Shown here piece after piece: positions 21,550 to 56,699 of a stretch of DNA of 64,000 bases. The notes beneath the pieces are model-generated. The model was not told the origin of the DNA. It saw nothing but the letters and a program-made list of their open reading frames with translations, and made no database searches. Numbering within the stretch: position 1 is the first letter of the stretch; every line of letters begins with the position of its first letter. The position numbers and the translations under genes were made by a program. Source of the stretch: Okamejei kenojei (Eukaryota); assembly GCA_035221665.1 (NCBI GenBank), contig CM069140.1, forward strand, positions 5,022,001 through 5,086,000, given 5' to 3'.

Positions 21550-21712
21550 TTTGTGAAAGAGACTATCTGTTCTTATCAGAACAGTTCTGGCGGTCCCTTG
21601 GGGACAAGGGCCGTGGATTGCGGAGCAAAATCGTTGAGGAGTTGGTCGGCTGCAGGCTTAGAGGTGGATCCATGCTGGTTGGGAAACCAACCTAACACCT
21701 TATTCAGCCACA

Positions 21713-22429
21713 ATGTCAGTAGGAGCAGGAGTGCAGGGTATTCGGAATACCCTGCGAATAAGTGTCAAGGACCTCAGCAAGGGGACCCCCTTCTCACGAG
21801 ACCTGTTCGTGAAGAAGGTCTTGCTAGAGGCCTGCAAATTTGAGGCCAAGGACATCTACTGCCTCCAGGATTTTCCGGGTAACGGATATTTTGACGTTAC
21901 CTTCAAGTATCCAACGGGTTGGCAGAAGGTGATGGACAAGGATGGAGAAATCGTCCACCCCCCCTCGGTTTTCGCGATTGGAGGAAACCGAGGATACTTG
22001 AGCTATGTTGGGCAACCCAGGCTGTGCAGGAAATGCAACAAGCCTGGGCATGTGATGGCCCAATGCACTGCAGTTGTCTGCAAAAACTGCAAGATGGAGG
22101 GCCATGAGACAAAGGACTGTCAGGCCAGCAAGAACTGCAACCTGTGCGGGGAGGCAGGCCACCTTTACAGGGCTTGCCCTAAAAGAACCTGCACCTACGC
22201 ACAGGCAACAAGAGGAGCTGCTGCCAGCACCCCAAAGGGGAGTGAGGCACCCCCCACCACTGCAAAGACCCCAGCAGAAAGAGGGAACACGGATGAGGAC
22301 AGCCCGACCACCTTGAGGCCCCAAGTGCCAGAAGGAGACGCCCAGCATCCTGCCCAGGACGGAGAGTCGATGGAGGAGGGGGAACAGCAGGAGAAGTGGA
22401 CAATGGTGAAGTATAAGAAGAGGGGTTAG
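21713..22429 (+). CDS. Tx1/Keno ORF1 (gag-like, ZCCHC3-related), with apparent in-frame internal deletion
   Basis: Three knuckles CRKCNKPGHVMAQC, CKNCKMEGHETKDC, CNLCGEAGHLYRAC; FDVTF and HPP..FAIGGNRGYL..GQP motifs lie unusually close together. Confidence 0.8.
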   Translation: MSVGAGVQGIRNTLRISVKDLSKGTPFSRDLFVKKVLLEACKFEAKDIYCLQDFPGNGYFDVTFKYPTGWQKVMDKDGEIVHPPSVFAIGGNRGYLSYVGQPRLCRKCNKPGHVMAQCTAVVCKNCKMEGHETKDCQASKNCNLCGEAGHLYRACPKRTCTYAQATRGAAASTPKGSEAPPTTAKTPAERGNTDEDSPTTLRPQVPEGDAQHPAQDGESMEEGEQQEKWTMVKYKKRG

Positions 22430-22921
22430 CCCAAAGAGCCGAGGCCGGAAAGGAGTGGTAAGTCCAAACGAAAATCACCAAAAAGGTGTATTTCTCTTAC
22501 AGAAGGCAGCAAGGATGAGGCGACCGGGAAGTCCCAACGAGGGAGGCAGAGGAAGAAAACGGGGGAGGAAAAGGAGACCGAGAGCAGAGAAGTGGCCGAG
22601 GGGCTCCAGCCCCAGGACATCGGGAGCAGCGCAGTGGTTGAGGGGCTCCAGCCCCTGGAGACAGGAATCATCACAACGGCAAGTGGACCCCAGCTCCAGG
22701 CGACTGGGAAGAGTGCAACGGCCGATGGGTCCCAGCTCCGGGCGACCGGGAGCAGCGACAGAGGAAGCGGCATGCCCAAAAGGGGGTGGAACGAGAAGGC
22801 CCCCCCCCAACTTTGGTTACGCCACCTGATACTCACCTCACAGCTGGATTCCTGAGCCCAGGAAATTCACCGAAGCGGTGGGAATGAGGGGACATGAAAA
22901 TGGTCAGTGACTCTAAAGACA

Positions 22922-25900: not shown

Positions 25901-26338
25901 CCTCCCAGTCAGATCCTTCCTGCACCGTCGGAACCTCACTACCAGCGCACGCTGCCCTCGGGACGGCTGCTATGGCGAGGAGACGGTTGCCCACCTCTTT
26001 ACAGAATGTGGGTTTGCTAAAAGAGTCTGGAGAAAAATGCAAGGTTCCCTGGTTACGCTTTATCCCGAACAGCTCCGTCACAGAGGACTCTGTGATTTAC
26101 GGACTGTTCCCAGGGACACATTCAGAGACTGACATCGAGTGCTGCTGGAGGGTCATCAACTCGGTAAAAGACGCCCTTTGGTCTGCCCGAGCATTGTTCA
26201 CCACCCAGCAGAGCGAGATGTCCGTCAGGGAATGTTTGCCGACTGGCCCGCTGCAGACTGCAGGAGTACGTGCTGAGGGACGCACTGAAGCTCGGTGCAG
26301 CCAACGCCAAGGCTCGGTGGGGGAGGGCCACAGTCTAA
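22922..26338 (+). pseudogene. Tx1/Keno ORF2 (endonuclease + reverse transcriptase), many 1-nt frameshifts
   Basis: SLNVRS, FLQEC, GDFNC, SDH (APE); NWRPITLLNVDYKI, DQEKAFD, GVRQGCPLSP, YMDD (RT); CPRDGC..EETVAHLF.EC. Confidence 0.9.
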
Positions 26339-26611
26339 GGCCCTTCCGCTGCTGGACATGGGGGGCACGGTATGGTGGAGACGCCCCTCAATATAAGGGA
26401 AGGTATCCCACGCCACTGTGGCATGAGTGGGGGACTGATTTGTGGAAATTTGGGGGAAAGAAATGTCTAAACTGTATTGATCTATTGTACAGCCTCCGAA
26501 AATGTCGGATGGATTTTCCGCAAGGTTAATGTATTGTATATATTTATCATTCGAATAAAGTATATTTTGAAATAAAATTTTTTTTAAAAAAAGACCGGTC
26601 TCTCTCAGGGG

Positions 26612-27120: not shown

Positions 27121-27166
27121 ATGGGGGTCGTTGCTTATCTCTGTCTCCTTCTGTCCTGTCTGCCAG
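27121..27166 (+). pseudogene. IgW: IgW VH leader exon (MGVVAYLCLLLSCLPG)
   Basis: 46-nt hydrophobic exon, phase-1 donor GTGGGT, 101-nt intron ending TTTTATTGGCAG. Confidence 0.9.
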
Positions 27167-27267: not shown

Positions 27268-27573
27268 GCGTTCGATGCGCGGTCGCGCTGAATCAGACCC
27301 CGACCCCGGAGAGTCCCACAAACTGACCTGTGCAACCAGCGGGCTCAGCCTCAGCAGTACAGCGTGCACTGGGTGAAGCAGGTCCCCGGGAAAGGGCTGG
27401 AGTGGGTGGGGGTAGTGTGGTATAACGGTGACAACAATTACACGCCTGCCGATTCGAGGTTTCCAAGGACAGCAGCAACGTCTATCTCCAAATGAACGGC
27501 CTGAGTCTGAGCTATCACTGTGCGTAACTTTGACTACTGGGGTGCAGGAACCTCGCACAGTGACGGTGACCAG
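27268..27573 (+). pseudogene. IgW: Pre-joined VH-JH exon, frameshifted
   Basis: Across frames: [96 protein letters not shown], then donor GTAAT. Confidence 0.9.
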
Positions 27574-28487
27574 GTAATGGCCCTGTCTCACGGTGCGAGT
27601 CATCCCACGAGTGACCCCAAGTGAAAGAAAAAAAACAGACTCGTGGTTATGTACGAGATTTCAAGTTTATGATCAAGTGTTGAACCGAGTTCCCACGGGT
27701 ATGTCATTGCTGCGATGTTCCAAGTTCCTCTCCTGAGTTACCAAGTTCCTCTCCCGTTACTCTTGAGCCAATCGTGAATGAAGGTAAGTGTGTGAGGGTG
27801 TGAGAAGTCCATGCCGGGTGCCGGCCGCAGCCGCTGTTCTTTCACATCAGTTGCACATCAGATTGTTGGGAGACGGACCTCAGGGGTCGCCTCCTGAGCT
27901 GCTTTGGTGCCCAGGCGTAAGTTGAGGTGGAGGGTGGTTGGGGGTGGGGGGTGACAGACAAGGCTCTTGGGTGCTGGGATCATTCTCTGCGGGATGGTTA
28001 GCGCGGGAGACATGTGTAGGAGAGGTGCGCTGTCTGCAGGCAGACACTTTGGTAGTGATTGCCCACCAGCCTCAAAAGCCGCTGTGTTTCCCTGTCCCTA
28101 TGATAGCAGGGTGCAATCAAGCAGCACAATACCCCTCCCCCTCTACGCCAACACAAAGGGCAACGATCCCAAGGCTTTAGGGGCAGAAACAGCGGACAGG
28201 CGACAATCACCCGCCATAACGCGAGAGAGATCATGCGCTATTGTAGGTCTTCTTTGCACGTCGGTGTTTCTGTATTTCTCCATCTCATTGTTGGCCCTGA
28301 CTGTCACCAACCCCACCCCCACCTCTCTGCTTCCCGGCCATGTGTGTGACCCCTTCCCTCCCCTCTCCAGCTCCCTGTCCATTGCACCGGGCGCGGGGGC
28401 TTCGCACCGTCTTCATGTTGGCGACGATCCCAAGGCTTTGGACGGGAAGGCAGACGCAACAAGCTGGAGTAACAACGCGGGCCAGGT

Positions 28488-31400
28488 AACATAGAAACAT
28501 AGAAACATAGAAATTAGGTGCAGGAGTAGGCCATTCAGCCCTTCGAGCCTGCACCGCCATTCAATATGATCATGGCTGATCATCCAACTCAGTATCCCGT
28601 ACCTGCCTTCTCTCCATACCCTCTGATCCCCTTAGCCACAAGGGCCACATCCAACTCACTCTTAAATGAACTGGCCTCAACTACCCTCTGTGGCAGAGAG
28701 TTCCAGAGACTCACCACTCTCTGTGTGAAAAAAGTCTTTCTCATCTCGGTCTTAAAGGATTTCCCCCTTATCCTTAAGCTGTGACCCCTTGTCCTGGACT
28801 TCCCCAACATCGGGAACAATCTTCCTGCATCTAGCCTGTCCAACCCCTTAAGAATTCTCTGCACTCCCTCTATGGCAATAATGTCCTTCCTCAGATTTGG
28901 AGACCAAAACTGTACGCAATACTCCAGGTGTGGTCTCACCAAGACCCTGTACAACTGAAGTAGAACCTCCCTGCTCCTGTACTCAAATCCTTTTGCTATG
29001 AAAGCTAAACATACCATTCGCTTTTTTCACTGCCTGCTGCACCTGCATGCCTACTTTCAATGACTGGTGTACCATGACACCCAGGTCTCGCTGCATCTCC
29101 CCTTTTCCTAATCGGCCACCATTTAAATAATAGTCTGCTTTCCTGTTTTTGCCACCAAAGTGGATAACCTCACATTTATCCACATTATACTGCATCTGCC
29201 AAACATTTTGCCCACTCACCCAGCTATCCAAGTCACCTTGCAGTCTCCTAGTATCCTCCTCACAGCTAACACTGCCCCCCAGCTTAGTGTCATCTGCAAA
29301 CGTGGGGATATTGCCTTCAATTCCCTCATCCAGATCATTAATATATATTGTAAATAGCTGGGGTCCCAGCACTGAGCCCTGCGGTAACCCCACTAGTCAC
29401 TGCCTGCCATTGTGAAAAGGACCCGTTTACTCCTACTCTTTGCTTCCTGTTTGCCAGCCAGTTCTCTATCCACATCAATAACTGAACCCCTAATACCGTA
29501 TGCTTTAAGTTTGTATACTAATCTCTTATGTGGGACCTTGTCGAAAGCCTTCTGGAAGTCCAGATATACCACATCCACTGGTTCTCCCTTATCCACGCTA
29601 CTAGTTACATCCTCGAAAAATTCCACAAGATTCGTCAGGCATGATTTACCTTTCGTAAATCCATGCTGACTTTGTCCAATGATTTCACCACTTTCCAAAT
29701 GTGCTGCTATCCCATCTTTAATAACTGACTCTAGCAGTTTCCCCACTACCGATGTTAGACTAACTGGTCTGTAATTCCCCGTTTTCTCTCTCCCTCCCTT
29801 CTTAAAAAGAGGGGTTACATTTGCTACCCGCCAATCCTCAGGAACTACTCCAGAATCTAAAGAGTTTTGAAAGATTATCACTAATGCATCCACTATTTCC
29901 TGAGCTACATCCTTAAGTACTCTGGGATGCAGCCTATCTGGCCCTGGGGATTTATCGGCCTTTAATCTATTCAATTTACCCAACACCACTTCCCGACTGA
30001 CCTGGATTTCACTCAATTCCTCCTTTGACCCACAGTCCCCTGCTATTTCAGGCAGATTATTTATGTCTTCCTTAGTGAAGACGGAACCAAAGTAGTTATT
30101 CAATTGGTCCGCCATATCCTTGTTCCCCATGATCAACTCACCTGTTTCTGACTGCAAGGGACCTACATTTGTTTTAACTAACCTCTTTCTCTTCACATAT
30201 ATATAAAAACTTTTGCAGTCAGTTTTTTATGTTCCCTGCCAGTTTTCTTTCATAATCTATTTTTTCCTTTCCTAATTAAGCCCTTTGTCCTCCTCTGCTG
30301 GTCTCTGAATTTCTCCCAGTCCTCTGGTATGCTGCTTTTTCTGGCTACTTTGTACGCATCATCCTTTGCTTTGATACTATCCCTGATTTCCCTTGTTATC
30401 CACGGATGCACTACCTTCCCCGATTTATTCTTTTGCCAAACTGGGATGAACAATTTTTTTAGTTCATCCATGCAGTCTTTAAATGTCTTCCATTGTATAT
30501 CCACCGTCAACCCTTTTAGAATTAATTGCCAGTCAATCTTGGCCAATTCACGTCTCATACCCTCAAAGTTACCTTTCTTTAAGTTCAGAACCATTGTTTC
30601 TGAATTAACAATGTCACTCTCCATCCTAATGAAGAACTCAACCATATTATGGTCACTCTTGCCCAAGGGGGGCACGTACAACAAGACGGCTAATTACCCC
30701 TTCCTCATTACTCAAAACCCAGTCTAAAATAGCCTGCTCTCTCGTTGGTTCCTCTACATGTTGATTTAGATAACTATCCCGCATACATTCCAAAAAAATC
30801 CTCTTCCTCAGCACCCCTGCCAATTTGATTAACCCAATCTATATGTAGATTGAAGACACCCATTATAACTGTTTTGCCTTTGTCGCACGCATTTCTAATT
30901 TCCTGTTTGATACCATCCCCAACTTCTCTGCTACTGTTAGGTGGCCTGTACACAACACCCACCAGCGTTTTTCTGCCCCTTAGTGTTTTGTAGCTCTACC
31001 CATACCGATTCCACATCCTCCAAGCTAATGTCCTTCCTTTCCATTGCGTTAATCTCCTCTCTAACCAGCAACGCTACCCCACCTCCTTTTCCTTTCTCTC
31101 TATCCCTCCTGAATATTGAATATCCCTGGATGTTCAGCTCCCAGCCTACGTCACCCTGGAGCCATGTCTCCGTGATCCCAACTATATCATAATCATTAAT
31201 ATCTATCTGCACGTTCAACTCGTCCACCTTATTACGAATACTCCTTGCATTGAGACACAAAGCCTTCAGGCTTGTCTTTACAACGCACTTACCCCTTATA
31301 CAATTTTGCTGAAAAGTGGCCCTTTTTGATTTTTGCCCTGGTTTTGTCTGCCTGCCACTTTTACTTTTCACCTTGCTACCTATAACTTCTACCCTCATTT

Positions 31401-31722
31401 TACACCCACCTGCCTCTCTGCTCTTGTACCCATCCCCCTGCCACATTAGTTTTAAATCCTCCTCGACAGCACTAGCAAACACTCCCCCAAGAACATTGGT
31501 TCCATTCCATTCCAGGTGCAAACCGTCCTGTTTGTACCGGTCCCACCTCCCCCAGAACTGGTCCCAGTGCCCTAAAAAATTTGAATCCCTCCCCTTGCAC
31601 CACTTTTCAAGCCATGTATTCATTTGCAATATCCTCCTATTTCTACTCTGACTGGCCCGTGGTACTGGTAGTAATCCGGAGATTACTACCTTTGAGGTCC
31701 TACTTTTAAGTTTATCTCCTAA
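28488..31722 (-). mobile_element. Long CR1 LINE (ORF1 esterase C-terminus + ORF2 APE/RT), nested in the Harbinger element
   Basis: ORF1 SGNH-like VVISGLLP...DGLHL; ORF2 CLNARS, GITETWL, YRPP, SDH, NYRPVSLTS, PQGSVLGP, FADD; tail (CATAGAAA)n; ~130-bp internal deletion near 28857. Confidence 0.92.
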
Positions 31723-31895
31723 GAACATCTCTGGAGAAGGTGACGTTTTGGATAAGGGCTCGTCTTCTGAAGAAGGATCTCGACCCGAAAAGTCACCTAT
31801 TCCTTCTCTCCAGAGTTGCTGCCTGACCCGCTGAGTTACTCCAGCTTTTTCGTTGAATGGGTGACGTTTCGGGTCGAGACCCTTCTTCGGACTGA
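31722..31895. mobile_element. Cluster of Penelope-like hammerhead-motif repeats in alternating orientation
   Basis: CTGAAGAAGGATCTCGACCCGAAAAGTCACC (+) and the reverse complement of CCGAAGAAGGGTCTCGACCCGAAACGTCACC (-). Confidence 0.55.
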
Positions 31896-32169
31896 AAATA
31901 AAACTTGCCTCGCTTGAAGCAGCTTGTAAATTAAAACATAAAATCAAGAAATATTAAAGGTCGACTCATTTATGTGCTGTATTCATTCACCTGGCCTATT
32001 GCTGTCCTCCCTCGTCCACCGTGAGCACTGGACAACTCACCGGATGGAAACCTCCGCTGCATCCCGGGCGGAGGGCGATGATCACTGGACTGACCGGCAA
32101 GTAGAGGCGGCGGGTCGGCCAAGCCCGGCTCCCCGCCACCGGGATAGACACCAACTACTGGACTAAAGC

Positions 32170-32680
32170 TCAGCAGGATCTCTGGAGAAGTCTGAAGTAA
32201 GGTCTCGACCCGAAATCTCACCCATCCCATCTCTCCAGAGATGCTGCCTGTCCCTCGGAGTTACTCCAGCATTGTGTGTGTCTATCTCGGTGTGAACCAG
32301 CATCTGCAGTTCCTTCCCAATCCCACACTCTCGGCCCCGGGGGGTGGATGGAGCATCACACGTGGACACATCCCACCCACCACCCCAGACTTGCCCCTTC
32401 GGCAGGTCTTTAACCGCGTCCTCATGAGACAGAGTGACGAATACGAAGCCACGGGGCAGGCGCCTCAGTAATAAAGGACAAGTGGCAGATCATCGCAAAA
32501 GGCCGAAGATAGACACAAAATGCTGGAGTAACTCAGCAGGACAGGCCGCATCTCTGGAGAGAAGGAATGGGTGGCATTTCGGGTAAGTCTGAAGAAGGGT
32601 CTCGACTCTATTCCTTCTCTCCAGAGATGCTGCCTGGTCCGCTGAGTTACTCCAGCATTTTGTGTCTATCTTTGGTTCAG
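32170..32680. mobile_element. Further Penelope-like hammerhead-motif repeats (32170-32315 and inverted pair 32500-32680)
   Basis: Same family arms and cores. Confidence 0.55.
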
Positions 32681-33204
32681 TCTTTACTCGAGCAAAAGAA
32701 CAGATTATTAAAGTTCCCACGGTAGACTCACGAGACACTAAGATAAACGCACGGGCCACTACGTTATTACGAGTTTAAATGTTTCCATTTTTAACTTGAA
32801 CAGTTAATTTGACTCGTGGAAAAAATCAAACATGTTTGATTTTTTTCACGAGTTAACAAGTTTCCCGAGTACCTGCCGTTAGCGCCACGAGTCGATAAGT
32901 TGCTCGTGCGAGTTCCGACGTTCCCGCTACGTGATCACCACGAGTGAAAACTCGGGGTCACTCGTGGGCCAACTCGCACAGTGAGACAGGGGTTTAAGAC
33001 CAATTCCTCAATACCCAGTTGTGTTTTATTAATTTATGGTCTTTGCGAATTCTGTCATTGACCTGAACTCGGTGAGATATTTGGAACAATTGCACGGGTT
33101 TCCCGGAGACAGGCGGGTTTCTCCGGAGTTAGAATCTACCCAGCAACAGTACATTCCCACAGCGTTGAACTGCCCCACAGGCTGTTCTGTCCCTGAGATT
33201 CGCC

Positions 33205-34500
33205 ATTATCTGCCTTCAGTCCATCTTGTGCATGCCGACCAAGCTGGCTTTCTGGGCTCGTCCCATTGACCACATATCCTTCTCATCCATAGACCGGATT
33301 TTTTTGATCATCGTAATTCTATCTGCTTTTATAGTTTCCTCTGGCAACTCATTCCAGATACTGCCGACCCAATGTGAATAAAAATGCCCCTGAAGTCCCC
33401 TTTTAAATATCTCGCCACGCACCGTACGCCTGTGCCCTCTTGTTTTAGAAACCTCCATCCTGGGAAAAAGCCTGTGAGCGTGCACCTCATCCATGCCCCT
33501 CATGATCTTGTTTACCTCAATAAGGTTGCCGCCTAGTCCTTTGCTCCAAAGGGAAAAAAAACACCTTATCCTCCCTCTCCCTAAAACAGAACCCACATGT
33601 CCAGACAATATCCTGGTGAATCTTTTCCAAGTTCTTTCCAATATAATGACACCCTGTAGCTGGATGACCAGATCTGCACAGTACTTACTCCAAGCGTGGT
33701 CTCACCAATGACCTGTACAGCTGCATCATCATGTCCCAACTTTTATACTCGGTACCCTTCCCATTGAAGGCAGTCTGCCAACAGCCACCCCAGCTCCCTG
33801 TCCACCTAACTCTCCACTCTCAGAGAACCATGCCCCTGCATTTCCACATCTGTCTGTTCTACAACATTCTCCAGGCTCTACCATTTACTGTGGAAGTCTA
33901 GCCCTGGTTTGATCTACCAAAGTTCAACACCGCCTCACTTGTCAGAGTTAAATTACATTTGGCATTCCTTGGCTCCCCTTCCCAACTGATCTAGATCTTC
34001 TTGTAAACTTATCCTTCTCACTGTCCACTCATGCACTGATTTTAGTTTAATCTGCAAACTTACTATCAATGTCCACTATATTGTATGGCAAACTGTTAAT
34101 GTAGATAACCAACAACAGTGGTCTCAGCACTGGTCCCTGCAGCAGTCCACTTCCTCCAAGCTAATTTAGCTAATGTAGGGTTTCATGTGATCTAACCTTC
34201 CACGCCAGCCCACCATGCCAGACCTTGTTGAACCTTATCAGGTTCATGAGGCACAATTTCCCCAACACAAGCCATGCTGTCCCTAATCCTTGGCCCACCC
34301 TCCCAAGTGATCTAGATCTTGTAAACTTAGGTCTATCCCTAATCAATGCGTGCCTATCCAAATACTGGTAGTTCCTGTCCCTAAGGACATTCCCACCAAT
34401 GACGTCAGGCTCACTGGTGTAGATCCCTGGCTTGGCCCTAATGTCCTTCTTCAATTACGCTTCAGTATCAGCCACCCTCCAGTCTTTTGGAGATTAATCT
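33205..34500 (-). mobile_element. Old degraded CR1 LINE
   Basis: ORF 33216-33641 resembles the CR1 ORF2 C-terminus; degraded RT upstream. Confidence 0.7.
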
Positions 34501-34549
34501 GCCTGTTTCCACACCATCAATCTATGACGCTATGACTGCAGTACCTGCT

Positions 34550-34855
34550 CCCGCAAAGCGATCCCATCAAACACATCCAGGGCTGACGGAGCACGAGTCA
34601 AATGCAGAATAAATCTCCCCATGTCATTGTGCTGTCAGCTACAGATTAGATACATCTGGGCTGTCCCAACGCTCCCAGGGAAGGGACAGCACAGGTTAGA
34701 CAAGGAGTGAGGCTCCTTCCAACCTGTCCCCACACACACCCAGGTTAGACACTGAGTGAAGTTCCCTCTACACTGTTACATACTCCCAGTGCAGGGACAG
34801 AGTGCTTGACACAGGGTCAAGCTCCCTCTACATTGCTCTGTCAAACACTCCTTGT
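34550..34855 (+). repeat. Degenerate ~55-65-bp tandem repeat (AGGTTAGA.ACAGAGT.AAGCTCCCTCTACACTGT...AAACACTCC)
   Basis: About 5 diverged units visible. Confidence 0.55.
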
Positions 34856-35698
34856 GTAAATGCTTCAGAACACAGAACTCTAGATTGTAAAACAAATTGA
34901 TGCTGTTTGGTTCAAAAACAAACGTTCACAATAATGAATGATTTGAACATAATGAGAGACTGTTGTACATGGTTCTAGATGTGGGTTTTAGTACACCAGG
35001 TTTTCTTTGCGTCTTGTATTGAATTTCAACATTCAGAGATTCTTAGTAAGTCAAAACCTTTTATTCTTCAGTGTGAATTCACTGATGTGCGCAATTTAGA
35101 TTCGGAGTCAAGTTGCTTGGTGTTTTTGACGTGAGTTTTGCTGCACAAAAGAACTGCTTTCTCCCAGTTCACAGCTGGAGGAACAGCTCTAATTTGATGC
35201 CCTCCTCCGTCAGCCGACTGGGTTTGTCCAACACGTGCTTTGCTCCATTAACCAGGGCTGCTGGTGTCTCAGTGAATCTCAGTGGTCATTCACAGAGCAC
35301 CTTTCATGGTGTCCGCGATCGCTTCACAGGCAGTGAGGCATGTTCACAATAGAGCCGTGTTGTAAAGGAGGGACTGTGGAACCACTCTGCACACAGCAGT
35401 ATCGGCAAACCGCTGGTGAGGGGGAAATGTTGTCCGAGACACCACAGATACTGTGATCCAATGGACGGGCATCACGCTGCAATTGGACAGATTGGACCTG
35501 TCAGATTTTCTTTTGTCAGTAACCTGGATTTTGTGCACTAATCCACAGTAATGATGACCTCTCAGTTTCCCTGCTGTTCCTCAGTGGAGGAGATCTATTG
35601 TCCTTACCCAGTCGAGCCTATTTCTGACCACTGACCCAGCAACGCAATTGGCACTAAATGCCCCCAGGTTGGCAACCCAGACGGGCAGTTTATTGCCC

Positions 35699-36634
35699 CT
35701 CCTCACCCCGGCACCCAGCTCCTCACCCCGGCGCCCAGCTCCTCACCCCGGCACCCAGCTCCTCACCCCGGCACCCAGCTCCTCACCCCGGCACCCAGCT
35801 CCCCACCCCGGCGCCCAGCTCCCCACCCCCGGCACCCAGCTCCTCACCCCGGCACCCAGCTCCTCACCCCGGCACCCAGCTCCTCACCCCGGCACCCAGC
35901 TCCTCACCCCGGCACCCAGCTCCTCACCCCGGCACCCAGCTCCTCACCCCGGCACCCAGCTCCTCACCCGGCGCCCAGCTCCCCACCCCGGCACCCAGCA
36001 CCTCACCCCGGCACCCAGCTCCTCACCCCGGCACCCAGCTCCTCACCCCAGCACCCAGCTCCTCACCCCGGCACCCAGCTCCTCACCCCAGCACCCTGCT
36101 GCTCTTCACCCCGGCACCCAGCTCCTCACCCCAGCACCCAGCTCCTCGCCCCGGCACCCAGCTCCTCACCCCGGCACCCAGCTCCTCACCCCGGCACCCA
36201 GCTCCTCACCCCGGCACCCAGCTCCTCACCCCAGCACCCAGCTCCTCACCCCGGCACCCAGCTCCCCACCCCAGCACCCAGCTCCTCACCCCCGGCACCC
36301 AGCTCCCCACCCCAGCACCCTGCTGCTCTTCACCCGGCACCCAGCTCCCCACCCCAGCACCCAGCTCCCCACCCCGGCACCCAGCTCCTCACCCCAGCAC
36401 CCAGCTCCTCACCCCGGCACCCAGCTCCTCATCCCGGCACCCAGCTCCTCACCCCGGCACCCAGCTCCTCATCCCGGCACCCAGCGCCCCACCCCGGCAC
36501 CTAGCTCCTCACCCCGGCACCCAGCTCCTCACCCCGGCACCCAGCTCCTCACCCCGGCACCCAGCTCCTCACCCCGGCACCCAGCTCCTCACCCCGGCAC
36601 CCAGCTCCTCACCCCAGCACCCAGCTCCCCACCC
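35699..36634. repeat. 20-bp minisatellite (CTCCTCACCCCGGCACCCAG)n, ~46 units, in the J-C intron
   Basis: Read directly; the minus-strand unit is GGGGTGAGGAGCTGGGTGCC. Confidence 0.97.
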
Positions 36635-38410
36635 AGAATTCCAGAGACTCACCACTCTGTGTGAAAAATGTTTTTCTCATCTCGGTCCTAAAAGACTTCC
36701 CCCTTATCCTTAAACTGTGACCCCTTGTTCTGGACTTCCCAACATCGGGAACAATCTTCCTGCATCTAGCCTGTCCAACCCCTCAAGAATTTTGTACGTT
36801 TCTATAAGATCGCCCCTCAATCTTCTAAATTCTAGCGAGTACAAGCCGAGTCTATCCAGTCTTTCCTCATATGAAAGTCCTGACATCCCAGGAATCAGTC
36901 TGGTGAACCTTCTCTGTACCCCCTCTATGGCAAGAATATCTTTCCACAGATTTGGAGACCAAAACTGCAATACTCCAGGTGTGGTCTCACCAAAACCGTG
37001 TACAACTGCAGTAGAACCTCCCTGCTCCTATACTCAAATCCTTTTGCTATGAATGCTAACATACCATTTGCTTTCTACACTGCCTGCTGCACCTGCATGC
37101 CTACTTTCAATGATTGGTGTACCATGACACCCAGGTCTCGTTGCATCTACCCTTTTCCTAATCGGCCACCATTCAGATAATAGTCTACCCTCCAGTATTG
37201 CCACCAAAGTGGATAACCACACATTTATCCACATTATACTGCATCTGCCATGCATTTGCCCACTCACCCAACCTATCCAAGTCATCCTGCAGCCTCCAAG
37301 CATCCTCCTCACACCTAACACTGCCCCCCAGCTTCGTGTCATCCGCAAACTTGGAGATGTTGCATTCAATTCCCTTGTCCAAATCATTAATATATATTGT
37401 AAATAGCTGGGGTCCCAACACTGTGCCCTGCGGTACCCCATTAGTCACTGCCTGCCATTCTGAAAAGGACCCGTTTACTCCTACCCTTTGCTTCCTGTCT
37501 GCCAGCCAGTTCTCTATCCACATCAATACTGAACCCCCCAATACTGAGTGCTTTAAGTTTGTATACTAACTCTTATGTGGGACCTTGTCGAAAGCGTTCT
37601 GAAAGTCCAGATATAACACCTCCACTGGTTCTCCCTTATCTACTCTACTAGTTACATCCTCGAAAAATTCTATAAGATTCGTCAGACATGATTTACCTTC
37701 CGTAAATCCTTGCTGACTTTGTCCAATGATTTCAACACTTTCCAAATGCGCTGCTATCCCATCTTTAATAACTGACTCTAGCAGTTTCCCCACTACCGAT
37801 GTTAGACTAACTGGTCTGTAATTCCCCGTTTCCTCTCTCCCTCCTTTTTTAAAAAGGGGGTTACATTAGCTACCCTCCAATCCTCAGGAGCTACTCCAGA
37901 ATCTAAACAGTTTAGAAAAATTATCACTAATGCATCCACTATTTCTGTGGCTATTTCCTTGTGTACTCTGGGATGCAGCCTATCTGGCCCTGGGGATTTA
38001 TCAGCCTTTAATCCTTTCAATTTACCCAACACCACTTCCCGGCTAACCTGAATTTCACTCAGTTCCTCCATCTTATTTGACCCCCCGTCCCCTGCTATTT
38101 CCGGCAGATTATTTATGACTTCCTTGGTGAAGACAGAACCAAAGTAGTTATCCAATTGGTCTGCCATGTTCTTGTTCCCCATGACCAATTCACCTGTTTC
38201 TGAGTGCAAGGGACCTACATTTGTTTTAACTAATATTTTTCTCTTCACATATCTATTAAAACTTTTGCAGTCAGTTTTTATGTTCCCTGCCAGTTTTCTT
38301 TCATAATCTATTTTCCCTTTCCTAATTAAGCCCTTTGTCCTCCTCTGCTGGACTCTGCTGAATTTCTCCCAGTCCTCTGGTAAGTTGCTTTTTCTGGCTA
38401 ATTTGTGTAG
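36635..38410 (-). mobile_element. CR1 LINE ORF2 fragment (RT), truncated at both ends
   Basis: ORFs 36710-38434 with NYRPVS, YLDFQ.AFD, GVPQG, FADD. Confidence 0.92.
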
Positions 38411-38915
38411 TTTCACCTTAAAACCAGGTGTCAATGCCTCTGCTCTGCACCAGCAAGTCCTTCTTCATCTATCGCGTGGTCCGGTGACACGGCTGTGGTT
38501 GTGGCTCACATTGTAGCCTCTGGCTGGCAGTGCTTTCTTCAGGCTGCTGCCACTGACAGGGTGCACGGTCACCATGGGGCACCCTCACCTCTCACCAGCT
38601 GCTGCTTCCAAGGTGCAGTGTGTTGGTGACTCCAGGGAGGAGGAGATGCCGGTGGAGAGAGGAGGGGGAAGAGGCCGAGTGGACAGAGCGACGGGAGGAC
38701 GAGGGGGAGATGGCGGTCGAGCAGGAAGTGGACAAAGTGAAGAGCCGACAGGTTGAAGCAGCAGCAGGTGGGAGGGGAGGGAGCCTCATGGTGACCAAGC
38801 ACATCCTGTCGAGGACAGCAGCTTGAAGAAAGCGTTCATCTTGGGGGCTCCGTGAGCCACAACAACAGCAGCATCACGGACCATACGGTGGTGGGTGAAG
38901 AAGGGCTCACTTGCG
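38411..38915. pseudogene. Inverted pair of degenerate histone H1-like globular-domain fragments
   Basis: Minus arm 38411-38612: LKKALPARGYNVSHNHSRV..KKDLLVQSRG..FKV. Plus arm 38752-38915: VTKHILS..LKKA..VSHNNSSI..VKKGSL. Confidence 0.5.
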
Positions 38916-39946
38916 AGTCGGGGATGGAGTTGGAAGCCGGGGCTCTAAGCGGTCAAGAGCCATGCGTGGCAGGGTGGTATCGGCAGGTCCGTCCGCTATA
39001 TCCAAAATCTGTTATAAAGGGGTCCGTTAAAATGAGTGGTTACTGTATATCAATTCCCTGACTCATGAAGAGCTTTTTTTACCAACCTATTTACCTGTGA
39101 CAACGCTTCCTGGGATCTGTGTACCTGTACTCCAAGATCCCTTAGTTATACAACACTCCCCGGAGCCCAGCCTTGAGGGAGGTCCACAACAGGCCAGATC
39201 CAGCACCATTTGGCCCGGTGGTTGTGGATATGGTCCATCTGGCACCGTACCATGTGCTTCCTGACCTGGGGCACATCACCCACAGCACAGGCCGGCTTGT
39301 CCCTCTGGTTGGCAGAAGTTGCTTCACCAGTGTGAGATCAGCATTTCACTGCTTGGTCATGCATGGTGTGAAAGGGATTGGGAAAGGAACCATTTCTCTG
39401 CTCTGCCTGGCCTTCTCTCAGCCTGAATCACCTGCATTTACTCAGCAATCAGCATGAACCTGTTGCATGTGCTGGCAATAATCCATTTACTACAGAACCA
39501 ACTGTTAATTTATTCACATTTCAGAGGTTGAGGCCTTGCCTTCAGTGCACATCACCTCTTCCTGCAACACAGAATCTGTGCATTTAAAGCTGATGATAGA
39601 ACTGAAGTGGAAGCCTTTGTCGAACAATGTAGGAGGAAGTGAATTACTTATTTTGCTCATTCATTCTCCTCCTTTCAGCCAGAGTGCTGCTGCTCAAGGA
39701 AAAAGACAGTGAGAATTTATGTGGAAGGAGATAATGGTGGGGGGTGGGGGTTCAGGGAGGAAGCATCTCGTCATGATCTGCCTCCATTCTATCCACTGCT
39801 TTGTCTAATTCCTGCAGCTCTCTCCCACCCCAAACACCTCCCTGCAGATCAGCTGCTGTGCACAGAGCCACACCTATAGTGCCCGTGCACAGTGTGGAGA
39901 TTTAAACCTTCCTCACTCTTCCTGCATTTTCCCCTCAACCCTGCAG

Positions 39947-39979
39947 CCGACCCCTCACCAAGTGAAATCCAATCTCCTG
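39947..39979 (+). pseudogene. Possible collapsed CH1 remnant
   Basis: Strong polypyrimidine/CAG acceptor, then (A)DPSP-SEIQSP-G|GT, resembling the first and last codons of an IgW CH1 at the expected position. Confidence 0.3.
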
Positions 39980-40714
39980 GTGGAAATGACATGAATCTGC
40001 TTCCACTCTCACTTTTAACCACTGCCTTCCAGTTCTGATCAAATCATTGCTGCCATAACAAACTAAGTTTCTCATCCATCTGACCTCCTTTCCCATTAAA
40101 CTTAAAGTTGTGTCAGAAGGAACTGTAGATGTTGGTTTAAAGCAAAGTTAGACAGCTGGAGTAACTCAGCGGGTCAGGCAGCATCTCTGGAGAAAAGGAG
40201 TTGGTGGCGTTTTGGGATGAGATCCTTCTTCAGACTGAGTAGGGAAAGGGAAAAGAGAGATATAGACAGTTATATAGAGAGATATAGAACTAATGAATGA
40301 AAGATATGCAAAAAAGTAATGCTGATAAAGGAAACAGACAAAGGAGAGGTGAAGACAACTTAAAGTTGTGATTCCCAAACCTCCTGCCAGTAGAAACAGT
40401 TGTGTCATCTGTTACTGTGTCTGCTCCAGCACACACTGAGATCACGGATGGTCTGTACGCCACTTACCCACCTCCACCCATACCACTGCAGAGTGGCCCA
40501 CACTGCTGGGGAGGCCTGTGTTCTAACCCAGCCTCCCAATCACAGCTCTGACCAGCACCTCAATGTGGGACCCACCGTATCATCTCATCACCGGCATATC
40601 ACCAGCATTGTGGGGAGGGCTGGTTCTGGGGCACTTGTCCCAGATGCTGGGAGAGTGGAATCCTACACTGTGGCTGAATGAATCATGTAATAACAGATAT
40701 TAAATATGTTACAG

Positions 40715-41018
40715 CTCCACAGCTCATTCCCCCTTGTTCCATCTCCGGAGGTTCTCCACAATCAAATAACTGCTGTCCTGGGCTGCATGATATCCGGATT
40801 CTCTCCTGACAATATTAAAGTTTCCTGGAAAAAAGCTGGAGTTAATCAAGCGGGCGTCGTCGTTCTCCCGTCCACTCCGAGAACTAACGGTGGTTTTGAA
40901 ACAGTTGCTTACCTGCAGTTGCGTGTGAAGGAATGGACCAACAAACAGGAATATACTTGTGAAGTGACTCGCGCGCCTTCCGGCTTCAGCGACAGGATCA
41001 ACATGAGATATCAAGAGG
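40715..41018 (+). pseudogene. IgW: IgW CH2 exon (+1 C in a homopolymer near the 5' end)
   Basis: (A)PQLIP/LVPSPEVLHNQITAVLGCMISGFSPDNIKVSW...EWTNKQEYTCEVT...MRYQE G|GTGAGT. Confidence 0.92.
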
Positions 41019-41384
41019 GTGAGTCGTGTCTGTTAATATACTTACAGCATTAAACAACCTTACTGACATTTCCACCAAATTCCTGTCCCTGAGATCAGTC
41101 CTGTTGAGTGATATATTATGTTCAGATTTGGCTTTTTGCAATTTAAGCCAATGCTTTCCATCAGTAATTCTAACTCATTCTACAGGACATATAGAAAGGA
41201 AGCTCACCCGTGTGTTTACTCTCACTCCTCTAGTTGCCTTTGTGTGCAGTGGTAAGAAAAATGGGACAGTGAAAAACCACAGGTCCCATTCAATATCTGG
41301 AGAAAACCTCTCTTCCCTTCTCACTGTCTTCTTTGTGTTAGTTTCTCCAAATCTATCTTTTTCCACTGTTTCCTGAGTGTTCTG

Positions 41385-42456: not shown

Positions 42457-42584
42457 GTGGAGAATGTCCCGGCTGTTCGAAGTGTCTGCCGAAGTTCTTC
42501 TACCAGAGTAATCTCAATGTGACATTCTTAGATGGTTCTACCCGGCAGTATCATTGTTGGGCAGGAAAGTGTGAAATAAAGTAA
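42457..42584 (+). pseudogene. IgW: IgW short-form (IgX) cysteine-rich secretory tail exon, reading frame intact
   Basis: CCAG|GT GGA GAA TGT...: GGECPGCSKCLPKFFYQSNLNVTFLDGSTRQYHCWAGKCEIK*; AATAAA at 42575-42580. Confidence 0.88.
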
Positions 42585-44558
42585 TTGGCTGCGTATGGAA
42601 TTTGTCATTCTATTATTACAACCCATTTATAAGATTCAAATCCAACCCCTGGTATCCATTTGGATCAAAGTGTACCAGAGTGGGGGAAAATACTCAAAAG
42701 CTGCTTCCCTCTCCCCTCCACTCGTTGCCTGTATATTCATTCATTTGCAGACATTGCTGCCTCACATCCCAGTGCCACTGGCCAGATTTATCCATGCTCA
42801 GACTCTAGTCAGCAAGGACTACCCAGAGATCGCAATGCAGGAGATGTTTAAGGTAAACGGTGTGAAATGTCAAAGTGGGTCAGTAAAAAATTGGGTGACC
42901 ATATAATAAAGGCAAACTGGTGAGGCAAGATCCAGGGCTCTAACCGGTCTCCTGTCCTATACTGGCTTTGGGTGAAAACCGTGGTTAGCATAAATTGCCA
43001 CAGATTTATTAACCCACCTCCCGGACACAGACCTCAGCCCAAAGGAGAAACTCGGGGAATGCAAGGAATGTTGCAAGGAATGGACGTGTTTGGTTATAAT
43101 CATCCAAGGATGAGCAGGACAAATTGTCTCTTGTGGAAGATACCAGTATTTGACAGCATGGAGAGTATCAGGTTTCATATGAGGTGATTTCCCCCCCAAC
43201 ACCGCGATGGTGGCTACACGACTGTCACTGATGTGGGACGGGATTGAGCATCTTGCAAACACACATGTTTAACAATATCACATTGCTGATTAAAACAAGA
43301 TTCACAAAGCAAAAACATTGTACACTGTAAAACTAGGCTTACAGATTTCCGATGACACTGCAACGACTGTTAGCCACACTAATACCGCGCACATAACTAT
43401 TTTTGAAAGGAATTTGCTCACCATTTTGCTTAAAGCAGGAGGGGTTGTGAAAGAGAAAACATCTTACATTGACAAATGTTATGTCTCCTGTCAGACAGAC
43501 ACAGTATATGACCTCTGCGTTCTACGCAGCTGAAGGCTTTGATCTCCAGGCTCACTGAAAGTTTCAAATCTGACACAAACGTAATCACCCTCCACAATAA
43601 GTGTTTGCGAGCAAAATCAGCTCATGTGGTCCAAGTGACTGAGTGTGTAAACAGTGCACACACGAGAGTGGGCTGAGTGGAACTAGACTCATGATGCTGC
43701 TTCAGAAGACAAGTGGCAGTGCAGGTCAGTCAGGGGCAATGAATGAATAAATCATTCTCTTCCTCACCCAATGATTCTGAAGTGAAGCGGGAAAATACAT
43801 CTAATGCAGAATTTCATCGCAATCTGCAGCAGGAGGGGGACCTTGATACTTCTAACCATTCATGATTTGCTCTGCTGTCGCTGGAGAGTCAGCCACTAAT
43901 TTATTTCAGATAGTTTCTATCAATTACTGAAACGCCTCAACGTCTTCACTGAATCACAGTCACACTAAACTGACGCTAGTCTGTGGCTGAGTGAGTTTTG
44001 GTGCTTGTGGGCAACACTGCAACGTGACACAGCAAGTGGTACAAAGGTGAAAGGAGTGCAGGCTTACGAGTGCCCAGAGTTGGAAGAATGACACCTTTAC
44101 TGAAGGTTGTGTTTGTGGTGAAGGTTTCTGAGATGGTGAGACACATGGTCAGAGTAAGGCTGCGATATCAGCATGTGACATTCTTAAACTGAGGGAATCC
44201 CAGGCTTGGCCTACAGGGAGAAAAGTTGCTTTTCTCAGTCATGTTGCTCAGTATTACTAATCGATGCTGCAGGGGTTCCAAGCAAAGCACGTATCAAATT
44301 GTGCCCCTGTAATGTACCAGCTGATCATGGTGATGGGAAAGAGAGTCAAATCCCAGTTGACGGCTCCTTTGTTCTGTTTTTTTCAGTCAAAACACCCAAC
44401 CTGCTATTTAACACGAGTTTTTCTACTATTCTGTTTGCAATAAATCTAGTCCGTGTATAGTTTGATCTGGCATTGATCAGTCTTTTATGTGATGACATAA
44501 ACATCTTAAAGTTCTTTTATAAGACACCTGTTTGGATTTCTGCCCTGGCTTTCCATAA

Positions 44559-44900
44559 ATAGCCTGAGCCACTTACGCAATTTTTTCCGGCGACTGCCAG
44601 CACCTGTCATAGTCGCAGCAGGTCGTTGAAAATTTTTACCGCGTTAAAAATTCAGCGGCGACCAGAAAGACGCTACGACTCTTTAGGCGACTGAGGAGAC
44701 TACTCACGACCATACAGGCGACACCCTGACAACATGTCGCGGAGTGAAGCCTATATGGTCGTGAGTAGTCGCCCAAAGAGTCGTACCTTGTTCTGTTCGC
44801 CGCTGGATTTTCAACATGCTTAACATTTTCGGCGACCTGCAACGACCTCTGACGGGTACCAGCAGTCGCCGAAAAAGTTGCGTAAGTGGGACAGGCCCTT
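44559..44900. mobile_element. PIF/Harbinger MITE immediately upstream of CH3
   Basis: Inverted ends CCACTTACGCAATTTTTTCCGGCGACTGC / GCAGTCGCCGAAAAAGTTGCGTAAGTGGGACAGGCCCT. Confidence 0.75.
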
Positions 44901-44955
44901 TAGTAACAGATGAGTCTCAACTAAAATTCTGAACTTTTCCATTTCTGATCCACAG

Positions 44956-45257
44956 TATTGTCCATTTCATTCAAAATCCTGGCATGAAAGAGATTTGGAT
45001 CAACAAGACCGCTACGCTGGTGTGTTCAGTGATCTGTAGTGATCCGAGCCAGGTCCATCTCACCTGGAAGGTGGGAGGAAAGGAGAGAAGTGAAGGAGTT
45101 GTGACCCGTACACCGAGCCATGAAGGCACCCGATACCCATTGATCAGTGAGCTCCGGACCAGCGTGGAGGAGTGGACCAGCGGGGTGGAGTTTGTGTGCT
45201 TTGCCCAACAATCTTCTTCATCCTCACCAATGTCAACGCGGACCCACCATAACAAAG
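44956..45257 (+). pseudogene. IgW: IgW CH3 exon (apparent -1 T near the 5' end)
   Basis: IQNPGMKEIWINKTATLVCSV...VHLTW...EEWTSGVEFVC...HHNK G|GTGGGC. Confidence 0.9.
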
Positions 45258-45304
45258 GTGGGCAACAGATCAGTGATTAAATGGCCGTGACAGAGAGAGC
45301 GACA

Positions 45305-45787: not shown

Positions 45788-47933
45788 TTGAGCCACAAAA
45801 ACCTGAAGTCAGACTGCTGCTTCCAGCACATGAAGAGACCAAGCGTGGCCACAAGGTCACCCTCGAGTGCGTGGTCTCTGGATTCTACCCAGACCTCATC
45901 AACGTCACTTGGAGTAAAGACGGTGCCCTGATCTCCAACAACACCAGCGCTGCACCAACTGCTCTGGAGCAAGGGGGCACTTTCAGTGCCAGCCACTTCC
46001 TGACCATGAGTACCGAGGATTGGAAGTCAGGCTCACGGTTCAATTGTACAGTGTATCATCGTGCCTCCAACACCATCATCACGAAGGATGCGAAGAACAT
46101 AACCGTATAACCATATAACAATTACAGCACGGAAACAGGCCCTCTCGGCCCTTCCAGTCCGTGCCGACCATTTGTTTTCCCCTAGTCCCATCTACCTGCA
46201 CTCAGACCATACCCCTCCATTCCCTTCCCGTCCATATACCTATCCACTTTACTTTTAAATGTTAAAATCGATCCTGCCTCCACCACTTCTGCTGGAAGCT
46301 CATTCATGTACGTCCTATTTTGATTTGTCCTGCCAAGATGTAGCACTTCACACTTATCAGCATTAAACTCCATCTGCCATCTTTCAGCCCACTTTTCCAA
46401 TTGGCCCAAATCTCTCTGTAGACTTTGAAAATCTACTTCATTATCCACAACACCACCTATCTTAGTATCATCTGCATACTTACTTATCCAATTTTCCACC
46501 CCATCATCCAGATCATTGATGTACATGACAAACAACAGTGGACCCAACACAGATCCCTGAGGCACCCCACTGGTTACCGGCTTCCAACCTGACAAACAGC
46601 CATCCACCATTACTCTCTGACATCTCCCATTCAGCCACTGTTGAATCCATCCTGCTACTCCGCCATTAATACCCAAAGATTGAACCTTCTTAACCAACCT
46701 TCCATGGGGAACCTTGTCAAAGGCCTTACTGAAATCCATATAGACAACATCCACTGCTTTACCCTCATCAATTTCCCTAGTAACCGCTTCAAAAAATTCA
46801 AGAAGGTTTGTCAAACATGACCTTCCAGGCACAAATCCATGTTGACTGTTCCTGATCAGACCCTGTTTATCCAGATGCTATATATATTATCTCTAAGTAT
46901 CCTTTCCATTAATTTACCCCACCTCCGACGTCAAACTAACAGGTCTATAATTGCTAGGTTTATTCTTTGAACCCTTTTTAAACAATGGAACAACATGCGC
47001 AGTACGCCAATCCTCCGGCACTATTCCCGTTTCTAATGACATTTGAAATATTTCTGTCATAGCTCCTGCTATTTCTACACTAACTTCCCTCAATGTCCTA
47101 GGGAATATCCTGTCAGGACCTGGAGACTTATCCACTTTTATATTTTTCAAAAGTGTCAGTACTTCCTCCTCTTTGAATCTCATAGTTTCCATAGCTACTC
47201 TACTTTTTTTCCCTTACCTCACAGAGTTCAATATCCTTCTCCTTGGTGAATACCGAAGAAAAGAAATTGTTCAATATCTCCCCCATCTCTTTTGACTCTG
47301 CAGATAGCTGTCCATTCTGGCTCTCTAATGGTCCAATTTTATCCCTCGTTATCCTTTTGCTATTTAATATAGCTGTAGAAACCCTTTGGGTTTTACTTTC
47401 ACCTTTCTTGCCAAAGCAACCTCATATCTTCTTTTAGCCTTCCTAATTTCTTTCTTAAGATTCTTTTTACATTCTTTATACTCCTCTAGCACCTCATTTA
47501 CTCCATGCCTCCTATAATTATTGTAGATATCTCTCTTTTTTCAAAACAAGTGTCCAATTTCCCTTGAAAACCTATTTCCTTTCAACCTAACAGGGACAGA
47601 AAGATTCTGTACTTACAATTTCCCCTTTAAATGTCCTCCATTTCTCTTCTACATCCTTCCCATAAAACAAAGTGTCACATATATAATTAATTAATTTTAA
47701 ATCCTTATGCATTCCCTCAAAGTTAGCCTTTCTCCAATCAAAAATCTCCACCCTAGGTCCAGTTCTGACTCCCTCCATACTTATATTGAAACTAATATAA
47801 TATATAATTAATAAATATATAATTAATTAATATAATATAATATATAATTAATATGATATTAATTATAATGTATAATTAATATAATATATAATTAATAATT
47901 AATAAACTAATATAATATAATATAACATCCAAG
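45788..47933 (+). pseudogene. IgW: IgW CH4 exon (45788-46100 + 47929-47933) split by a CR1 insertion
   Basis: (V)EPQKPEVRLLLP...VTLECVVSGFYPDLINVTW...DWKSGSRFNCTVYH...KDAKN; the exon resumes AACATCCAAG|GTAGGC after the insert. Confidence 0.88.
46101..47923 (-). mobile_element. 5'-truncated CR1 LINE with AT-rich filler at its 5' junction
   Basis: ORFs 46182-47192 (YMDFSKAFD, GVPQGSVLGP, YADD); (ATAACCAT)n tail; AACAT on both sides. Confidence 0.9.
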
Positions 47934-48926: not shown

Positions 48927-49247
48927 ATGAATGCCCAGTTACCCGCCCCTCGGTCACTTTAAGCAAACCTTCCTTCGACGAGATCTGGATTAACAAGACA
49001 GCCACCATTCTGTGTAAGGTGGTTCACGGTGATTTAGAGGGATTCAGGGTAACCTGGCAAGTGAATGGAATGAAGAGAGAAGACGGGGTGACAACTCGTG
49101 GTGCAGAGAGGATCGGAGGTGCAGACACCATCACCAGCAGACTGACGGTCCCCGCTGCAGAGTGGGAGAGTGGGGCTCTGTACACCTGTGTGGTGGAGGA
49201 CAAGAGTTTGCCAACACCGGAGAGCAGATCCTTGGAGAAGCCGACAG
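48927..49247 (+). pseudogene. IgW: IgW CH5 exon, reading frame intact
   Basis: (D)ECPVTRPSVTLSKPSFDEIWINKTATILC...VTW...EWESGALYTCVVEDKSLPTP...KPT G|GTACGT. Confidence 0.92.
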
Positions 49248-49949
49248 GTACGTGTTGACAGAGGTTGGTGCGAGTCTGATCTGAGCAAATGGACAGACAT
49301 ATCACATCCAGCATTGAAAATAATTGCAGGAGCAGGCCATTCAGCCCTTCAATCCTGCACAGACATTCAATATGTGCACGGCTGATCATCCATATTCAGT
49401 ACTCGCTTCCTGCATTCTCTCCATATCCCTTGATCCCTTTACCCTAAGAACTGGATCCAACTAATTCTTGCATATATCTAATAATTGGGCTTCAGTGGCA
49501 GAGAATGCCCAGATTCACCACTGTCTGGGTGAAGACATTTCTCCCCCTCACACACCTAAACACCTTCACCTCAGACTGTCAACTCCTGGCCTGGATTCCC
49601 CAATATCTGAAACATTCTTCCTCTGCCTCACCTGTTCAAAGAAACATAGAAAATAGGTGCAGGAGGAGGCCATTTGGCCCTTCGAGCCAGCACCGCCATT
49701 TAATGTAATCATGGCTGATCGTCCCCAATCAATAACCAGTGCCTGCCTTCTCCCCATATAACCATATAAGAATTACAGCACGGAAACAGGCCCTCTCAGC
49801 CCTTCCAGTCCGTGCCAAATATCCCTTGATTCCACTAGCTCCTAGAGCTCTATCTAACTTTCTCTTAAATCCATCCAGTGACTTGGCCTCCACTGCCCTC
49901 TGCTGCAGGGAATTCCACAAATTCACAACTCTCTGGGTGAAAGATTTTT

Positions 49950-53555: not shown

Positions 53556-53939
53556 ATGGAGTTGAGAGTCGTCCTCAAGTCTACCTCCTCCCCCCTTCAT
53601 TGGATGAGGTGGAGACGGATGAGACGGCCACCTTGACGTGCCTGGTCACCAGATTCTCTCCTGCAGACATCTATGTGGCCTGGATGGCCAACGACACCCT
53701 TCTGAAGACAGGGATCGTGAACCAGCCCGTGACCAAGGACACCAGGAATGGGTGGAACACCATGACCAGTCAGTTGAAGGTTTCTCCAGAGGAGTGGAAC
53801 AGTGGCACCACCTTCTCCTGTGTTGTGGGACACGGCTCCATCACAACCAGCCTATTCAGAAGCATCAATAAATCTCACAACAAACCCACCCTGGTCAATG
53901 TCTCACTTGTTCTGACATAGCTTTAAATCTTGTTTGTAA
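53556..53939 (+). pseudogene. IgW: IgW CH6 exon plus long-form secretory tailpiece (frameshift in the tail)
   Basis: (D)GVESRPQVYLLPPS...TATLTCLVTRFSPADIYVAW...EEWNSGTTFSCVVGH...KPTLVNVSLVLT*; shifted frame continues SFKSCL*. Confidence 0.92.
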
Positions 53940-56530: not shown

Positions 56531-56699
56531 AAGGGAATAACATTTAGACTGTACCTTCTTTTATACATTCTTCTAGTTGTTGAAACAATACCTTCTGATC
56601 CAACACTATACCATCTTGTATCCACTCCTTACCACCCCACCTACTCTCCCTTGCCACTCAGACCTACGAAAGATGGGATCCAGATGGGAAGCACCATTA

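Follow-up and report, generated by a model that had tools for sequence, protein, structure and literature searches.

The 936-bp tandem array at positions 35699..36634 of the window (the whole 64,000-nt stretch of Okamejei kenojei DNA analysed here) is best read as an inherited minisatellite of the IgW J-C intron that was expanded neutrally in some gene clusters and has no selected role in isotype switching (probability approx. 0.7). The array resembles a switch (S) region in motif and place, but it is not a member of the switch-region family. In the mechanism that we favor, the IgW clusters of the skate would have passed on a 20-bp, G-skewed minisatellite at one set position of their J-C intron, and a seed of ~6 units would have grown to ~47 units. 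Slippage or unequal exchange is the suggested route, because runs of identical units are mixed with recurrent variants and 42 CpG are intact. The AGCT content of the array would then be a property of a seed that chanced to be amplified.

Composition of the array and state of its host gene

The array has a period of 20, 46.5 copies, 92% matches, and a score of 1585 in TRF, which makes it by a wide margin the strongest tandem array of the window; its right end is truncated. The preliminary description had reported ~46 tandem 20-mers here, a minus-strand unit holding both GGGGT and GAGCT, an AGCT in nearly every unit, and an RGYW motif in most. All of this is borne out by the counts: the minus strand contains 42 GAGCT and 41 GGGGT, AGCT occurs 42 times in total, and the RGYW-type motifs comprise 34 GGCA and 10 AGCA. 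The head-to-tail arrangement and the unit length are those of minisatellites, whose units span 10-100 bp. Twenty-four of the 46 parsed units equal the consensus, and ordered variants occur among the remainder, the commonest being CCCCGG to CCCCAG and CTCAC to CCCAC. In the germline, the G and C of AGCT are unaltered in 39/39 units of regular length. AGCT density reaches 45 per kb, compared with 3-4 per kb elsewhere in the intron, and the peak of 23 AGCT per 500 bp exceeds 60/60 background stretches of 10 kb (maximum 12). The array shares with S regions this high density of AGCT/WGCW AID hotspots as well as the placement of tandem repeats behind JH and ahead of the first C exon. It departs from them in strand and length. 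The non-template strand of S regions is G-rich, whereas the sense strand of the array is C-rich (C565, A143, G136, T92; G4Hunter-type score -1.44), and S regions measure 1-10 kb according to the available portion of PMC2442634, as against 936 bp here and 140 bp in two paralogues.

A hairpin-forming repeat was considered and rejected, as the minus strand of the array folds worse than shuffled sequences (z = +1.9, folding without G4). No structured-RNA match to Rfam was found in 33000-40000, and the long proline-rich ORFs that span the array are a by-product of the stop-free unit.

The plus strand of the window bears five C1-set exons. The last of them shows 95% identity with proteins from Leucoraja erinacea and Rhinoraja longicauda, 76% with named IgW chains (Carcharhinus plumbeus, Triakis scyllium), and 59% with horn shark IgNAR. 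Judged by these alignments, the gene is a skate IgW, the identity first assigned to it. Because it is an IgW on the plus strand, the G-rich strand of the array is the template strand, inverted relative to mammals, as the preliminary description also had it.

Damage to the C exons of this gene was scored against paralogue B. Behind the IgW leader exon (27121..27166, plus strand, placed by alignment to paralogues) stands a V that is germline-joined to J (VDJ exon at 27268..27573, plus strand). It is dead, as had been claimed: no RSS is left, and deletions of 13, 1, 10, and ~12 nt are present, several of them frameshifting. Its joint differs from those of the joined exons on C376 and is an independent germline join. 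A 5.4-kb element with terminal inverted repeats and nested retroposon pieces inside (27578..32993, no strand assigned) is inserted at the splice donor of J and is accompanied by a GTAA/TTAA duplication; with it, the distance from J to the array has become 8.1 kb, versus ~2.7 kb in the ancestral layout. The element sits exactly at the J donor yet keeps a GT donor, and related ends are found at 44540-44900 and 56640-57000. Ancestral IgW J-C intron, 86-93% identical to paralogues, forms the left flank of the array (32998..35698, plus strand). Upstream of V, decayed retroelements occupy 10300-16400 and 21660-26500 of the window; RT-bearing fragments occur there on both strands (RVT_1 at 13856-14812), as does a minus-strand LINE that retains remnants of endonuclease and RT.

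The C exons, all on the plus strand, have fared unequally. CH1 (39525..39577) is a stub of 53 bp and 17 codons, 273 bp including the splice donor having been deleted. CH2 (40709..41020) has a deleted acceptor region (9 nt) and a 1-nt insertion, CH3 (44955..45259) has a 1-nt deletion near its 5' end, and a 1.8-kb insertion stands between CH4 (45788..46100) and its donor. The array had been placed between JH and the first C exon, which is correct as to position, but that exon is only the CH1 stub and the native right flank of the array is replaced. CH5, the CH6 body, and the short tail had been listed as open, and all three are: CH5 (48927..49249) is intact, CH6 (53556..53920) is open, and so is the stretch at 42457..42584, read by eye from the sequence, which we take to be the IgW short-form secretory tail. 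The long secretory tail of CH6, however, is frameshifted by a 2-nt deletion that leads to an early stop. The proposal that foreign VDJ could be recombined onto these C exons fails at this locus, since a VDJ joined in the array would meet the CH1 stub without its donor, followed by frameshifted CH2 and CH3 and a CH4 cut from its donor. The functional downstream C gene that belongs to an S region is missing from the window cluster (CH1 deleted, CH2-CH4 damaged), and with the gene dead to either side of it, the window array can do nothing useful.

A retroposon fragment with RT remnants (36635..38404, minus strand, RVT_1 matches) adjoins the array, as originally described. It replaces ~1.15 kb of intron, including the native right flank of the array, which is kept in paralogues A, B, C, and D and absent from the window. 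From its RT motif, we take the fragment to be CR1. An origin of the array from CR1 was rejected, as the seed in paralogues C and D has native flanks and no adjacent CR1 end; so was a repeat derived from a CR1 tail, as the retroposon is cut short (3') at the array junction. Sequence comparison thus shows that CR1 truncated the array and did not create it. The earlier caveat of an incidental minisatellite has become the more likely reading, shorn of its suggestion of a CR1 by-product.

Distribution among immunoglobulin clusters and related organisms

All 13 genome matches to a two-unit 40-mer lie in the window array. With at most 1 mismatch, a 20-mer has 36 matches, 35 in the array and 1 on C6 (control, 1 match); with at most 2 mismatches, a 24-mer has 44, of which 40 are in the array, 3 in two IgW clusters on C376, and 1 on C5 (control, 0). 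The single outside matches on C6 and C5 are isolated, and that on C6 is at an unrelated 39-bp repeat. With 43/44 of the 24-mer matches within IgW J-C introns, the array unit is confined to these introns; it is neither scattered genome-wide nor unique to the window pseudogene, the two patterns that the preliminary description had set against its own proposal.

Four paralogous IgW clusters were found besides the window, A and B on C10 and C and D on C376. Clusters A and B contain unjoined, RSS-flanked segments (V-D-J in A); in both, the assembly shows a single frameshift close to CDR2, either real or a consensus error. Clusters C and D have germline-joined, open V exons. At the site of the array, C and D each carry ~6 degenerate units (~140 bp, 2 AGCT each) with native flanks, 2.6 and 3.0 kb behind J, and cluster B has lost the site through deletion; the repeat is lost or degenerate in 3/5 IgW clusters. 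Unit number differs between the homologous sites of four clusters (~47, ~6, ~6, and 0), as is characteristic of minisatellites. Open germline-joined IgW VDJ exons with a short cysteine-containing CDR3 are located at L021:8202-8537 and C376:26765-27088. In the seen stretches of clusters A and B, one and two extra CH3/CH4-like exon pairs follow CH6 (C10:3023500-3024500 and 3070700-3073800); they are absent from the window.

Cluster A has an open CH1. Over 1.4 kb (C10:3007000-3008400), its assembled sequence mixes the CR1-containing intron of B with an intron of the window type: within ~600 bp of CR1 sequence, fragments of the CCCCGG unit occur at scattered places, after which come ten right-flank bases absent from both B and the window. 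Further along, A and B are 99-100% identical. We infer from this pattern that, at the repeat site, the assembled cluster A merges two intron types into a chimeric consensus. A long array of ~0.7-0.8 kb, flanked on both sides, probably exists in the true A or in a copy missing from the assembly.

Presence in related organisms was also checked. Contigs of four runs out of 24, representing organisms A-D and four studies, align to the short-repeat site of cluster C, and in 4/4 organisms both flanks and the repeat site are covered. Loose contig ends bear AGCT-containing units in organisms C and D, and in organism A they bear the CCGG-type unit. When contig depth is summed, run X12 has about 860-920 over the repeat versus 170-190 over the flanks, X11 has 190-250 versus about 50, and X1 has 120-200 versus about 50; in X7, depth over the repeat is not raised above the flanks. 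The raised depth in three runs hints at multi-unit arrays, though depth does not equal copy number. Since the flanks are as well retained across organisms A-D as the repeat itself, this retention shows descent, not selection.

The other isotypes were covered by a V search (150 of 162 candidates scored) combined with a paralogue search, which yielded 7 IgM and 2 IgNAR clusters, both numbers being lower bounds. No AGCT array is present in 7/7 IgM and 2/2 IgNAR clusters examined. Among the IgM clusters, five J-CH1 intervals are complete (4.0-4.7 kb), and each has 7-10 AGCT, with no more than 4 per 500 bp; the two IgM clusters without a recognised CH1 reach maxima of 5 and 7 over 19 kb, and the IgNAR regions reach 4 and 5. 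A switch system needs partner S regions before other C genes, IgM foremost, and their absence from the clusters examined (0/7 IgM, 0/2 IgNAR, a lower bound on clusters) therefore counts against a switch region. The expected enrichment of the 20-mer in J-C introns thus held for IgW only, where one paralogue is without the site and two have 2 AGCT, and failed for IgM (0/7). Four of the seven IgM clusters (L033, L037, L038, L039) are germline-joined, two of them almost without CDR3 (YYWGGGT). Both IgNAR J-C introns contain a C-rich low-complexity tract of 1.1-1.4 kb on the sense strand, without AGCT (C15:56.931-56.933 Mb and C15:57.044 Mb), which gives a G-rich template as in the IgW array; similar skew occurs in 7/60 background stretches. 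Homology of the IgW repeat site with these tracts was rejected, as only common interspersed repeats align.

Chance and alternative explanations

The background was a 600-kb sample taken as 60 stretches of 10 kb. Minisatellites of 200 bp or more number 21 in it, and 11 of these reach 500 bp or more. Ten of the 21 come from the 200 kb adjoining the window, another 10 are close to chromosome ends, and 1 is interstitial. G4 motifs are present in 8/21, and 2 short ones have about 20-30 AGCT per kb. Read as a circular unit, 6.4% of genomic 20-mers hold AGCT. The two mammalian pentamers coincide on one strand in 0.8% of units after shuffling and in 0.05% of 20-mers from the genome, for motifs chosen post hoc. 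As a rough estimate, the odds that a 6-kb intron in such a region carries a long array with AGCT are near 1%, and the independent IgH lineages in which chance could act are few; with odds this low, a switch reading is not scored zero. All IgW copies are a single event by descent, however, and the motifs were picked after the fact.

Neutral expansion is favored by the AGCT-poor repeats (2 AGCT) at the same site in both clusters with open joined V exons (C and D), the deletion of the site in B, the lack of an AGCT array in the IgM and IgNAR clusters examined, the G-rich template (in mice, inversion of S-gamma1 lowers switching, according to the available part of PMC5485518), the abundance of minisatellites nearby, the share of genomic 20-mers with AGCT (6.4%), the unaltered G and C of AGCT in the regular units, the dead host gene, and reviews that describe shark switching as independent of S regions (PMC4279169, PMC4588147). 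Against it stand an AGCT density above 60/60 background stretches, the rarity of the pentamer pair, the restriction of the unit to IgW, an AGCT-bearing site in four related organisms with depth raised in three, and the long copy that the RSS-bearing, unjoined cluster A probably has. Also against it, AID mutates the switch cassette equally in both orientations (PMC5485518, available part).

The last finding also bears on an unlikely, though not negligible, alternative, in which a repeat of neutral origin would serve as an incidental, putative AID break hotspot in a transcribed long-array cluster (probably A) and would aid inter-cluster switching without being selected for it. Such a role is consistent with dense palindromic AGCT 2.6-3 kb behind J, at a density above that of the intron remainder (45 versus 3-4 per kb), with orientation-independent AID mutagenesis, with the blurred long copy in cluster A, and with the view, found in the available text of PMC4279169, that AID lesions precede shark switching. 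However, the long copy in A is read from a chimeric consensus, and no intronic promoter was identified. After joining, the array would lie ~3.3 kb from the V promoter, which may exceed the mutated zone as known for mammals.

Far less probable is a selected convergent or proto switch region of skate IgW that would act through AGCT palindromes together with either G-quadruplexes on the template strand or antisense R-loops. The repeat does have the right position, S-mu-like pentamers, restriction to IgW, and presence in related organisms, and amphibian S regions are recognised chiefly by AGCT density (PMC9911811, available part). Opposed to this are the want of a partner in the examined IgM and IgNAR clusters, the loss or degeneration of the repeat in 3/5 IgW clusters, the inverted strand bias, a length below 1 kb, the location of the best-assembled long copy in a dead gene, and flanks retained across organisms as well as the repeat. 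Equally improbable is the evolutionary version, whereby skates, independently of tetrapods, would have evolved an IgW switch-like AGCT/G-run repeat that focuses AID breaks, with cluster A as the working version and the window as a dead relic. The initial suggestion of a proto- or convergent switch substrate stands as to restriction to IgW and presence in relatives, and falls as to IgM partners, strand, and length. Finally, it is scarcely credible that collapse of the IgW family during assembly produced the length or the right junction of the window array: a chimeric consensus does occur at exactly the same site in paralogue A of the same assembly, but the window units are clean (24/46 equal to the consensus) with ordered variants, and a CCGG-type unit is found at the same boundary in an independent organism (loose end, X1).

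The site bears on the mechanism by which elasmobranchs change isotype in the absence of S regions, and on the origin of S regions. Even if the repeat is neutral, near-identical IgW clusters with about 47, about 6, or no units in one genome constitute a natural experiment. Sequencing of B cells could use the 47-, 6-, and 0-unit clusters to ask whether an AGCT-dense repeat draws AID lesions or junctions in cartilaginous fish; such an attraction is a step by which S regions could have begun. The array is thus a concrete test site and, as it stands, a minisatellite in a pseudogene.

Comparison with known systems

Unconventional inter-cluster isotype switching in the nurse shark was reportedly described by Zhu (2012) and Zhang (2013), and the complete genomic sequence of a Raja cluster, said to have been published by Anderson et al. 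in 1994, could mention the repeat. The literature searched, with most subscription papers outside its scope, contains no report of an S-like repeat within the IgW introns of skates or sharks, and the available parts of PMC12227049, PMC13066422, and PMC6795676 hold nothing further on this point. As described in the accessible sections of four articles, shark VDJ is expressed with the C regions of other clusters, including IgW-IgM exchanges, and neither S regions nor cryptic promoters are described there (PMC4279169, PMC4588147, PMC8201067, PMC5192425). The nurse shark has the same kind of IgH locus, of the cluster type, and its inter-cluster switching is a process that the array could in principle feed; however, in the text available, this switching proceeds without S regions, and no array is reported or needed (PMC4279169, PMC4588147).

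The S regions of amphibians (Xenopus, axolotl) resemble the array in being AGCT-dense and in lying between JH and the first C exon. In the portions of the sources at hand, they precede the IgM, IgX, and IgY C genes, whereas the skate array is shorter than 1 kb and confined to IgW; in addition, the S regions of Xenopus are AT-rich and the skate array is GC-rich (PMC9911811, PMC4279169). The S regions of the axolotl are AGCT-dense spans of about 12-15 kb before IgM and IgX (PMC9911811, available part).

The likeness to S-mu extends to position in the J-C intron, tandem repetition, AGCT palindromes, both pentamers, and G4 capacity. Mammalian S-mu is built of GAGCT/GGGGT pentamer repeats. In contrast to S-mu, where the G-rich strand is the non-template strand, that of the array is the template strand; moreover, the array is 0.94 kb long, has no IgM partner, is missing from some clusters, and sits in a dead host gene in which no I-promoter was found. 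GC-rich, G4-capable minisatellites, or VNTRs, form a general class, which the array resembles in its 20-bp unit, strand skew, high unit identity, variation in copy number between paralogues, and proximity to a chromosome end. It is set apart from this class by a unit that carries AGCT and by its location in an antibody heavy-chain intron.
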